A DNA stretch of 64,000 bases from Octopus vulgaris. Its lineage: Eukaryota. The stretch's first letter is position 1; every line of letters begins with the position of its first letter. Position numbers and translations under genes: made by a program. Below are positions 17,978-19,334 of the stretch, piece after piece. The DNA lies in the NCBI GenBank assembly GCA_951406725.2, contig OX597830.1, forward strand, positions 7,750,001 to 7,814,000, in the 5' to 3' direction. A model generated the notes under the pieces. The model was given only the letters and a program-made list of their open reading frames with translations, made no database searches and was not told the origin of the DNA.

Positions 17978-18274
17978 TGACATACATATTGACATGCATA
18001 TACAAATAGCTTTGCTAAAAATAGCAGTCAAAAATACTCCGAAGCCACAAGAAATAACACTAAATTTTTACACGCTTGGTTGGAAAAAACTAAGTGAATA
18101 AGGATTGTGTCTTGCCTCTGCAAAATTGCAAGAAGGAATTTCGGTTACCCTTGTATCATGATTTTGAATTTAGCTCCAAACGCACTTGATTCTCTTCAGC
18201 CAAGTCTACTCATAACAATACCTCTATTTCACTTCAACCAATACGTGTGTTCGTTTGAGAAACGGAATCTGCAT

Positions 18275-18335
<61 letters not shown>

Positions 18336-18417
18336 GGTCCCTGGTTGAGTCGGGGTTAACCACAGTAAATAAGGTACTCAATACATAGCAGAGTAAATTA
18401 ATTTATTTTATAGAAGG

Positions 18418-18468
18418 AGCTTCTACAGGACTAGAAGTGTTTCATTCAAAAGAAATCATCAGGAAGCT
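18418..18468 (-). ncRNA. Type I hammerhead ribozyme (minus-strand copy)
   Basis: AGCUUC-CUGAUGA-uUUC(uuuu)GAAu-GAA-ACA(cuucuagucc)UGU-A-GAAGCU; one substitution relative to the + strand copy. Confidence 0.75.
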
Positions 18469-18590
18469 AGGTGACAAGAATAGATTCCGTTTCTCAAACG
18501 AACACACGTATTGGTTGAAGTGAAATAGAGGTATTGTTATGAGTAGACTTGGCTGAAGAGAATCAAGTGCCAAAACTATTCTTGTCCCCT

Positions 18591-18641
18591 AGCTTCCTGA
18601 TGATTTCTTTTGAATGAAACAGTTCTAGTCCTGTAGAAGCT
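18591..18641 (+). ncRNA. Type I hammerhead ribozyme, complete
   Basis: Stem I AGCUUC/GAAGCU, CUGAUGA at 18597-18603, stem II UUC/GAA, GAAA, stem III ACAG(uucuaguc)CUGU, and a GUA cleavage triplet (predicted cut after 18635). Confidence 0.82.
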
Positions 18642-18660
18642 CTTTCCATAAAATAATAAA

Positions 18661-18831
<171 letters not shown>

Positions 18832-18841
18832 TAAAACAAGT

Positions 18842-19125
18842 GGAGGCGCAATGGCCCAGTGGTTAGGGAAGCAGACTCGCGGTCATAGGATCGCGGTTTC
18901 GATTCCTAGACCGGGCGTTGTGAGTGTTTATTGAGCGAAAACACCTAAAGCTCCACGGGCCGGCCTTGTAACTCTCTGTGTCTCGCTGAATATCCCCGAG
19001 AACTACGTTAAGGGTACACGTGTCTGTGGAGTGCTCAGCCACTTGCACGTTAATTTCACGAGCAGGCTGTTCCGTTGATTTGGATCAACCGGAACCCTCG
19101 TCGTCGTAACCGACGGACTTCCTCC
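18842..19125 (+). mobile_element. tRNA-derived SINE family C, with target-site duplication
   Basis: A box TGGCCCAGTGG and B-box-like GTTTCGATTCC; flanking direct repeat ATGAGTAAAACA at 18827-18838 and 19126-19137. Confidence 0.9.
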
Positions 19126-19334
19126 ATGAGTAAAACAGCTAGTTTTAAATCTCTGAATGAGGTCGATAACCAACTGGAAAACATGTTTTGCTGGAGTTAA
19201 AAGGTAGTAATATGGTCCTGCGCAGGACTGCCACCTTATGTTGGCAAATAGATTTTACTGTATGTATATATGTATATACATATATGTGTGCGTGTGTGTG
19301 TGTATACATATCTATATACATATATACATGTTTG

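Follow-up and report, generated by a model that had tools for sequence, protein, structure and literature searches.

A probable flank-derived junction filler in a truncated Penelope-like element insertion of Octopus vulgaris

Introduction

Penelope-like elements (PLEs) can carry a hammerhead in the pLTR, an inverted truncated 5' copy and a one-sided tail, and those of the Hydra clade have a (TA)n target (PMC8557442; this and all other published systems are cited for the available portions of the sources). Completion of PLE integration and formation of the inverted arms are still called undefined (PMC8557442). In vitro, the protein of a Poseidon PLE cuts and extends both strands and uses two reverse transcriptase (RT) start sites (PMC11167929).

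Templated insertions are known for the retroelements L1 and R2. During L1 integration, local DNA (<250 bp) is copied in, in a twin-priming context, from templates typically within 15 bp of the site (10.1101/2024.08.27.596794; PMC11702581). At R2 junctions, snap-back onto cDNA or nearby rDNA has been described (PMC11371274). In SD-MMEJ, snap-back leads to inverted repeats and in-trans priming to direct repeats (PMC9303309). Host DNA between pLTRs was found in Penelope elements of Adineta vaga, either as 0.9-1.5 kb spacers or as whole genes moved to new sites (PMC3846280).

Here we analyzed a locus of Octopus vulgaris in which a piece of neighbouring DNA is repeated, in inverted orientation, between the two arms of a PLE copy. 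The window is the whole analyzed stretch of 64,000 nt (GCA_951406725.2, contig OX597830.1, forward-strand positions 7,750,001 to 7,814,000). The feature is very likely real, an ordinary two-arm PLE insertion with a templated junction filler, and of modest mechanistic interest. Similar templated insertions recur in about 3% of the copies of this PLE family. Unlike the L1 data, these are fixed genomic copies of another retroelement class; unlike in A. vaga, it is the flank of the target itself that is duplicated in the filler, which has stayed in place. In the literature searched (mostly excluding subscription journals), we found no PLE fillers described as copies of local flank, and the available text on Hydra-clade PLEs mentions no target-flank filler (PMC8557442).

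Results

Structure of the Insertion

In total, 332 bp were inserted within an (AT)n tract, forming a truncated PLE copy (Table 1). The source of the filler, A, lies 62-150 nt past the 3' end of the element and 6 nt past (AT)28. In the initial annotation, A and A' were described as exact reverse complements and B and B' as inverted arms differing at a few positions. Both descriptions were borne out. A and A' match at 89/89 nt with sharp limits, the match being extendable at neither end, and B (- strand, 18403-18486) is 94% identical to B' (+ strand, 18573-18656) over 84 nt. Three substitutions are private to B'. The 70-nt tail of the element had been overlooked. The filler is located exactly at the inversion junction, originates from the local flank and shares microhomologies of 3 nt and 2 nt with the arms.

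Table 1. Features of the insertion and its flanks (window positions)
Feature	Positions	Strand	Comment
MITE-like inverted-repeat element, old and unrelated, one end	18008..18259	+	Target-site flank containing most of A; 49 other matches
A, host flank and filler source	18182..18270	+	Exact reverse complement of A'
(AT)28 target microsatellite	18277..18332	.	3' side of the element
PLE tail, 70 nt	18333..18402	-	Sense arm only; 18333 is the fixed 3' end of the family
B, sense arm, 3' end of pLTR	18403..18483	-	18482-18483 is the 2-nt microhomology with A'
Type I hammerhead motif in B	18418..18468	-	Predicted cut after 18424
A', inverted copy of A, 89 nt	18482..18570	-	At the inversion junction; 84 nt minus both microhomologies
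B', inverted 5' arm	18568..18656	+	Ends at the second fixed point of the family
Microhomology shared by B' and A', 3 nt	18568-18570	+	Overlap of both parts
Type I hammerhead motif in B'	18591..18641	+	Identical to the form usual in the family; cut predicted after 18635
Extra A/T-rich bases, 8 nt	18657-18664		Between the end of B' and (AT)82
(AT)82 target microsatellite	18665..18828	.	5' side of the element

A Young Family of Penelope-Like Elements

The - strand sequence of 18333-18481 has 780 first-look candidates genome-wide, and the 40 of them that were scored are 98-100% identical. Two exact patterns, each consisting of (TA)n followed by the inverted arm and representing two end variants, were found at 490 and 90 genomic places. 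For the survey, 189 loci were used: the first 100 listed of the 490 places (two of which share a locus) plus the complete second set of 90. Both ends (with the 3' end within 1.5 kb) were found in 142 of the 189 insertions. The median length is 196.5 nt, and 128 of the 142 two-ended copies are ≤260 nt; the remaining 47 of the 189 are longer or have no such 3' end. The majority of copies are direct hairpins with zero spacer. The commonest insertion is a near-perfect palindrome of about 190 bp consisting of two hammerhead halves (L058-L087 and most of the 142). The joint between these halves is often the AGCT of stem I, which is self-complementary, and hundreds of such hairpins are present in AT tracts.

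Two fixed end points, separated by 70 nt, characterize the arms: the sense arm starts at the end of the tail and the inverted arm 70 nt inside. The inverted start was fixed by the search patterns, yet it was also seen in copies retrieved with the sense arm as a query. These two start points match the two RT start sites, and the extension on both strands, of a Poseidon PLE in vitro (PMC11167929). Among the printed copies from the sense-arm query, which were not AT-selected, the 3' ends pass into AT repeats.

In the tandem copies L046 and L047, the tail stretch continues into an open reading frame (ORF). The ORF of the full-length copies, frameshifted in L046 and L047, contains RIRWR, SDKT, YRDD and a C-terminal VY...YIG motif, together with a CxCx5C linker (CNCPDKTTC), a late CxxC (CDLC) and a CxH (CMH). 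Its nuclease core has no CCHH, with a single Cys between VY and YIG. No RT or nuclease match was found for the ORF pieces in Pfam and PDB; the PLE assignment therefore rests on motifs read by eye. The C-terminal GIY-YIG-like domain, RWR/DKT, CxCx5C and (TA)n target are shared with Hydra-clade PLEs, as is the layout of a pLTR hammerhead, an inverted truncated 5' copy and a one-sided tail (PMC8557442). Unlike in that clade, the tail measures 70 nt instead of 30-40 nt, the unit is 4.3 kb and R replaces K of RWK (PMC8557442). The unit of L047, with a hammerhead in both pLTRs, comprises 4340 nt, versus a Hydra-clade tendency of <3 kb, and exceeds 3 kb because of its long simple-repeat 3' UTR.

Judged from these motifs, the arms appear to be the 3' end of a young, high-copy PLE of the Hydra-clade type that inserts into (TA)n, and the earlier proposal of a PLE-type insertion into (AT)n is supported. 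The 3' UTR of L047 (L047:4930-6900) consists of about 2 kb of mixed TA/TG/TATG repeats, and through it the family would spread its own kind of target sequence. The two arms of one insertion often carry the same rare variants (L059, L061, L064 and L117, among printed copies only), which would fit a single template and could equally be due to later conversion. Repeated short re-priming stutters of element sequence were found at the inversion junction of L125, L094, L155, L159, L167 and L188, which suggests that synthesis and release took place several times. In the short-read runs X4, X5 and X6 (two other species labels), the depth of the hammerhead arm is very high; the family is abundant in relatives too.

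Fillers in Sister Copies

Other copies were collected, as proposed in the initial annotation, to look for inverted local flank, and copies of the local flank do recur at the same junction. A spacer of at least 50 nt consisting of neither simple nor element sequence was found in 7 of the 142 two-ended copies, and 4 of these 7 are at least 98% identical to their own flank. Flank-derived fillers are thus present in 4/142 copies (2.8%, 95% interval 0.8-7.1%). They are 79-172 nt long, three being inverted and one direct, and 3/142 are located strictly between two arms. The filler of L018 (172 nt, inverted) originates from +410 to +588 from the 3' end, that of L117 (82 nt, inverted) from +191 to +273 and that of L111 (79-83 nt, direct) from about +558 to +640. 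The filler of L144 (134 nt) is inverted, a fold-back into the 5' flank, and is placed before a short tail piece. Among the 47 other loci, L136 and L250 were found by eye to have inverted 3' flank in place of the missing normal 3' end. The strict filter retrieved only L111 and L117; L018 and L144 were added by a gap-based search.

Sources of the fillers lie up to 0.6 kb from the insertion. As a background, a local twin of the same quality exists for 1.4% of flank bases, in 13 of the 142 loci. Between sister fillers and their sources there are 0-6 differences, as would be expected of real DNA that has aged. Microhomology at unique-sequence junctions is 0-4 nt in the sister copies and 3 and 2 nt here (raw counts without chance control). 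A few untemplated bases are present in L111, and one junction of L018 is located inside an AT tract. The 3' flank is the source in 6 of 7 cases including the window locus, a bias that is not significant (p 0.125).

Several other candidates were not counted. In L064 (G000:C1:18642808-18645845), a truncated copy ends in a short stutter followed by a 1.1-kb direct duplicate of the 5' flank; the duplicate is 97% alike and probably reflects a tandem duplication. L156 and L198 probably contain other inverted-repeat elements nested in AT tracts, and L114 and L173 are probably element variants. L058, L130, L167, L221 and a small number of others match other local repeats, L109 and L155 contain brief stutters of the element's sequence, and L105 and L200 contain A/T-rich simple sequence. 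No source within 10 kb was found for the 170-nt filler of L062; it was left out of the count too and speaks against the explanation preferred below. This filler, between the arms at insertion positions 66-233, is SINE-like and may stem from a switch to a different RNA or to a locus far away.

As with the L1 templated insertions (10.1101/2024.08.27.596794; PMC11702581), a piece of local DNA under 250 bp is present within the insertion, here in a probable twin-priming context. The distances differ. L1 templates are typically found no more than 15 bp from the site, whereas 3 of the 6 other cases here (L117, L018 and L111) have templates 190-560 nt away. At the window locus the distance is 6-62 nt, set by the place of the nick in (AT)28. 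The rate of 4/142 compares with 22/3598 for L1 in one data set, which its authors call an undercount (p 0.016; 10.1101/2024.08.27.596794), and with 3/235 in another (p 0.43; PMC11702581). A 3' end that primes on its own strand or on nearby DNA is proposed here and known from R2 and SD-MMEJ (PMC11371274; PMC9303309); the fillers and loops here are longer. That the fillers exceed the short-range SD-MMEJ events of the available text in length and in distance from the break (PMC9303309) counts against the proposed copying.

Origin and Timing of the Filler

We consider it probable that the insertion is a truncated PLE copy in (AT)n whose 89-bp middle part is neighbouring host DNA, copied while the two arms were being joined. 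Under this explanation, the element endonuclease would cut both strands of (TA)n, and each 3' end would prime cDNA synthesis on one RNA; starts at the end of the tail and 70 nt further in would give head-to-head arms. This priming would leave two 3' flaps, and the flanks (5' strands) would be resected. The end of cDNA B could then snap back on its own strand through 2 nt and, heading outward from the break, copy 89 nt of A. After release, this end would anneal to cDNA B' through 3 nt, and the gap would be filled.

The same scheme could be applied to the sister copies. Inverted fillers would result from snap-back of the end on the same side (at the window locus and in L018, L117, L136 and L250; on the 5' side in L144), and the direct filler of L111 from the opposite cDNA priming in trans on the same exposed strand. 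SD-MMEJ has this same rule of orientation (PMC9303309), and R2 snap-back (PMC11371274) and the L1 templated insertions are similar. All cases can be read as synthesis on a single remaining exposed strand, moving away from the break. We infer this single-strand rule by parsimony, each filler having a second formal reading with the other primer and the other strand. Either host Pol theta or the reverse transcriptase of the PLE could have done the copying; both fit the sequence.

A filler added after integration is unlikely, though it is the best of the alternatives. Here a plain B'-B hairpin would have been inserted first, and the palindrome would later have broken centrally and been patched by end-joining with a copy of the nearby flank. 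Near-perfect palindromes are break-prone, and microhomologies of 2-3 nt fit either timing. The arms at the window locus differ at 4/81 sites versus 0/84 for A and A' (Fisher p 0.056; Poisson P 0.03-0.10), and because of this mismatch A' could be younger than the insertion; the identity of A and A' could, however, also come from conversion between them. Against later repair, the fillers of L018, L111, L117 and L144 are not obviously younger than the arms. In L018 the arms match at 103/103 sites and the filler at 97/98; in L117 the arms differ at about one site and the filler matches at 76/77. The sister-copy fillers, with L018 and L117 no younger, thus seem to be about as old as the arms. Moreover, in L136 and L250 the filler replaces the missing 3' end, which is a better fit to failed integration.

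Copying during integration, the preferred reading, can be extended to a tentative and rather doubtful generalization: PLEs would integrate via a true double-strand break whose two ends bear cDNA and whose flank is exposed over up to 0.6 kb, and in about 3% of cases a polymerase, possibly the telomerase-like RT of the element acting on DNA, would copy target DNA into the junction. The hundreds of young copies would in that case naturally record the second half of the PLE cycle, and the fillers would represent a route by which host DNA first comes between pLTRs. Flank fillers in both orientations and up to 0.6 kb away would in themselves constrain the PLE intermediate to one with both strands cut and primed, long resection and closure by microhomology. 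They also yield a prediction that can be counted in PLE insertion assays, with Pol theta present or absent.

Read Evidence

No contig bridging the B|A' or A'|B' junction was found among the contigs listed for eight short-read runs, a filtered set in which the lack of a junction carries little weight outside X1 and X4. Runs X1, X2, X3 and X7 were compared with 18333-18664, and runs X4, X5, X6 and X10 with 18440-18664. An unbranched contig of depth 15.5 in X1 passes through A into its native context, and an unbranched 260-nt contig in X4 (other species label) also passes through A. The simplest reading is a young insertion absent from the X1 and X4 individuals. With no run known as the source of the assembly, an artefact keeps a small probability. 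The private end of B' (18657-18664) has zero depth in X1 and X10, so these samples probably lack the whole insertion and not A' alone.

The lack of a bridging contig and the perfect identity of A and A' would both be consistent with an artefact in the vicinity of the AT tracts, A' being misassembled or derived from a chimeric read. Such an origin is very unlikely, given that A' adjoins neither AT tract and is located at the arm junction, where microhomology flanks it on either side, that the same structure occurs with imperfect identity in sister copies, and that the whole insertion is probably absent from X1 and X10.

Hammerhead Motifs

Both arms contain a stem I of 6 bp, CUGAUGA, GAAA and GUA, and in both the type I core (C3 U4 G5 A6 N7 G8 A9, G12 A13 A14, A15.1-U16.1 and H17) is satisfied. 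The initial annotation had assigned a complete type I hammerhead with a GUA site to each arm. The cores are indeed present at the positions given there; completeness is qualified by stem III on the - strand, by stem II, by the folding of the monomers (see below) and by a search of Rfam, in which no hammerhead was found at the gathering score or at E up to 10. In the - strand motif of B, C.C replaces G-C in stem III, a private G>C substitution that breaks the outer pair; G at this position is the family letter (printed copies and read data). Stem II of both arms has just three Watson-Crick pairs and U.U at 10.1-11.1, and U.U in place of the G10.1-C11.1 pair is also found in the printed family copies.

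The opposed pair of hammerheads reported earlier is present, but its presentation as a peculiarity was overstated, since it is the default of the family and has been published for PLEs. Dual PLE hammerheads are located on opposite strands 100-700 bp apart, with a quasi-palindromic helix III/loop 3 and dimer pairing (PMC4209133), and the motifs here resemble them. Unlike those, they have a stem I of 6 bp, a stem II of 3 bp and U.U for the conserved G-C (PMC4209133).

As monomers, the predicted hammerhead with helices I/II/III of 6/3/4 bp on the + strand lies 1.9 kcal/mol above the free ensemble, and that with 6/3/3 bp on the - strand 4.8 kcal/mol above it. Monomer folding is no better than that of shuffles (z +0.20, +0.55, -0.08 and -0.11). 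The helix III region of the + strand is predicted to pair with a second copy (dimer, -12.8 kcal/mol). For an RNA comprising 18333-18664 only, the hammerhead fold is predicted to cost about 80 kcal/mol on either strand, because on either strand the antisense arm precedes the hammerhead and the two pair. In a longer RNA including A, the cost falls to 2.7 kcal/mol (+) versus 8.4 kcal/mol (-) in a fold model without pseudoknots or folding kinetics. The drop on the + strand occurs because the A-A' helix competes with B-B' pairing. The + strand ribozyme alone is a plausible cutter in these models, and the A' filler would help it. It is doubtful that a transcript from either strand would be cleaved, as suggested earlier: whichever strand is transcribed, the antisense arm comes ahead of the ribozyme, and stem III of the - strand copy is broken.

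These predictions bear on the proposal that the PLE polymerase captured host DNA between ribozymes, yielding a cassette cut from either strand and able to be remobilized. Both hammerhead cores are present, a long + strand RNA starting upstream of A would free the + hammerhead at 2.7 kcal/mol through A-A' pairing, and host sequence between pLTRs, including a mobilized gene, is known from Adineta (PMC3846280). Such a cassette is nevertheless most unlikely. The insertion-only RNA bears the cost given above on either strand, and stem III of the - motif is broken. Single metazoan PLE hammerheads cleave poorly or not at all in vitro (PMC4209133), and PLE insertion in vitro did not require hammerhead cutting (PMC11167929). 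The B|A' junction and likewise each B' variant were found only once in the 2.8-Gb genome. The composite has not been remobilized or spread. What had been described as host-DNA capture is here a dead-end local duplication, because the B|A' junction is unique; the product, a single locus without evident function, is probably a dead end. Under the preferred explanation, the hammerheads are passengers near the cDNA start points.

In L058, L059, L061, L097, L109, L117 and L144, the subfamily changes of the hammerhead are mainly in loop II and at N7, which are free positions. Among the printed copies (uncounted, and with the 3' half fixed by the search pattern), this hints at possible selection on the ribozyme.

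Origin of the Copied Flank

No match of A to the element library exceeds 12 nt, which confirms the earlier view of A as target flank and not part of the element consensus. Most of A is contained in the end of the old inverted-repeat family, for which 49 other matches were found at 71-90% identity, several of them as inverted pairs. Copies of this family are 77-95% identical to A over at most 78 of its 89 nt, and the only perfect match to A' is the local copy. That A and A' are simply the two terminal inverted repeats of a MITE-like element of this family, around which PLE pieces landed, is barely credible in spite of the position of A inside it, because the paired arms of the family are 73-86% alike and not 100%, A' has 11 nt past the family match without the outer 174 nt, and the unbranched X4 contig, from another organism, passes through A without A'.

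On the insertion's opposite side, (AT)82 is directly followed by a repeat (window positions 18829-19128), which we take to be tRNA-like and of the SINE type. It terminates with a short repeat of its upstream bases.
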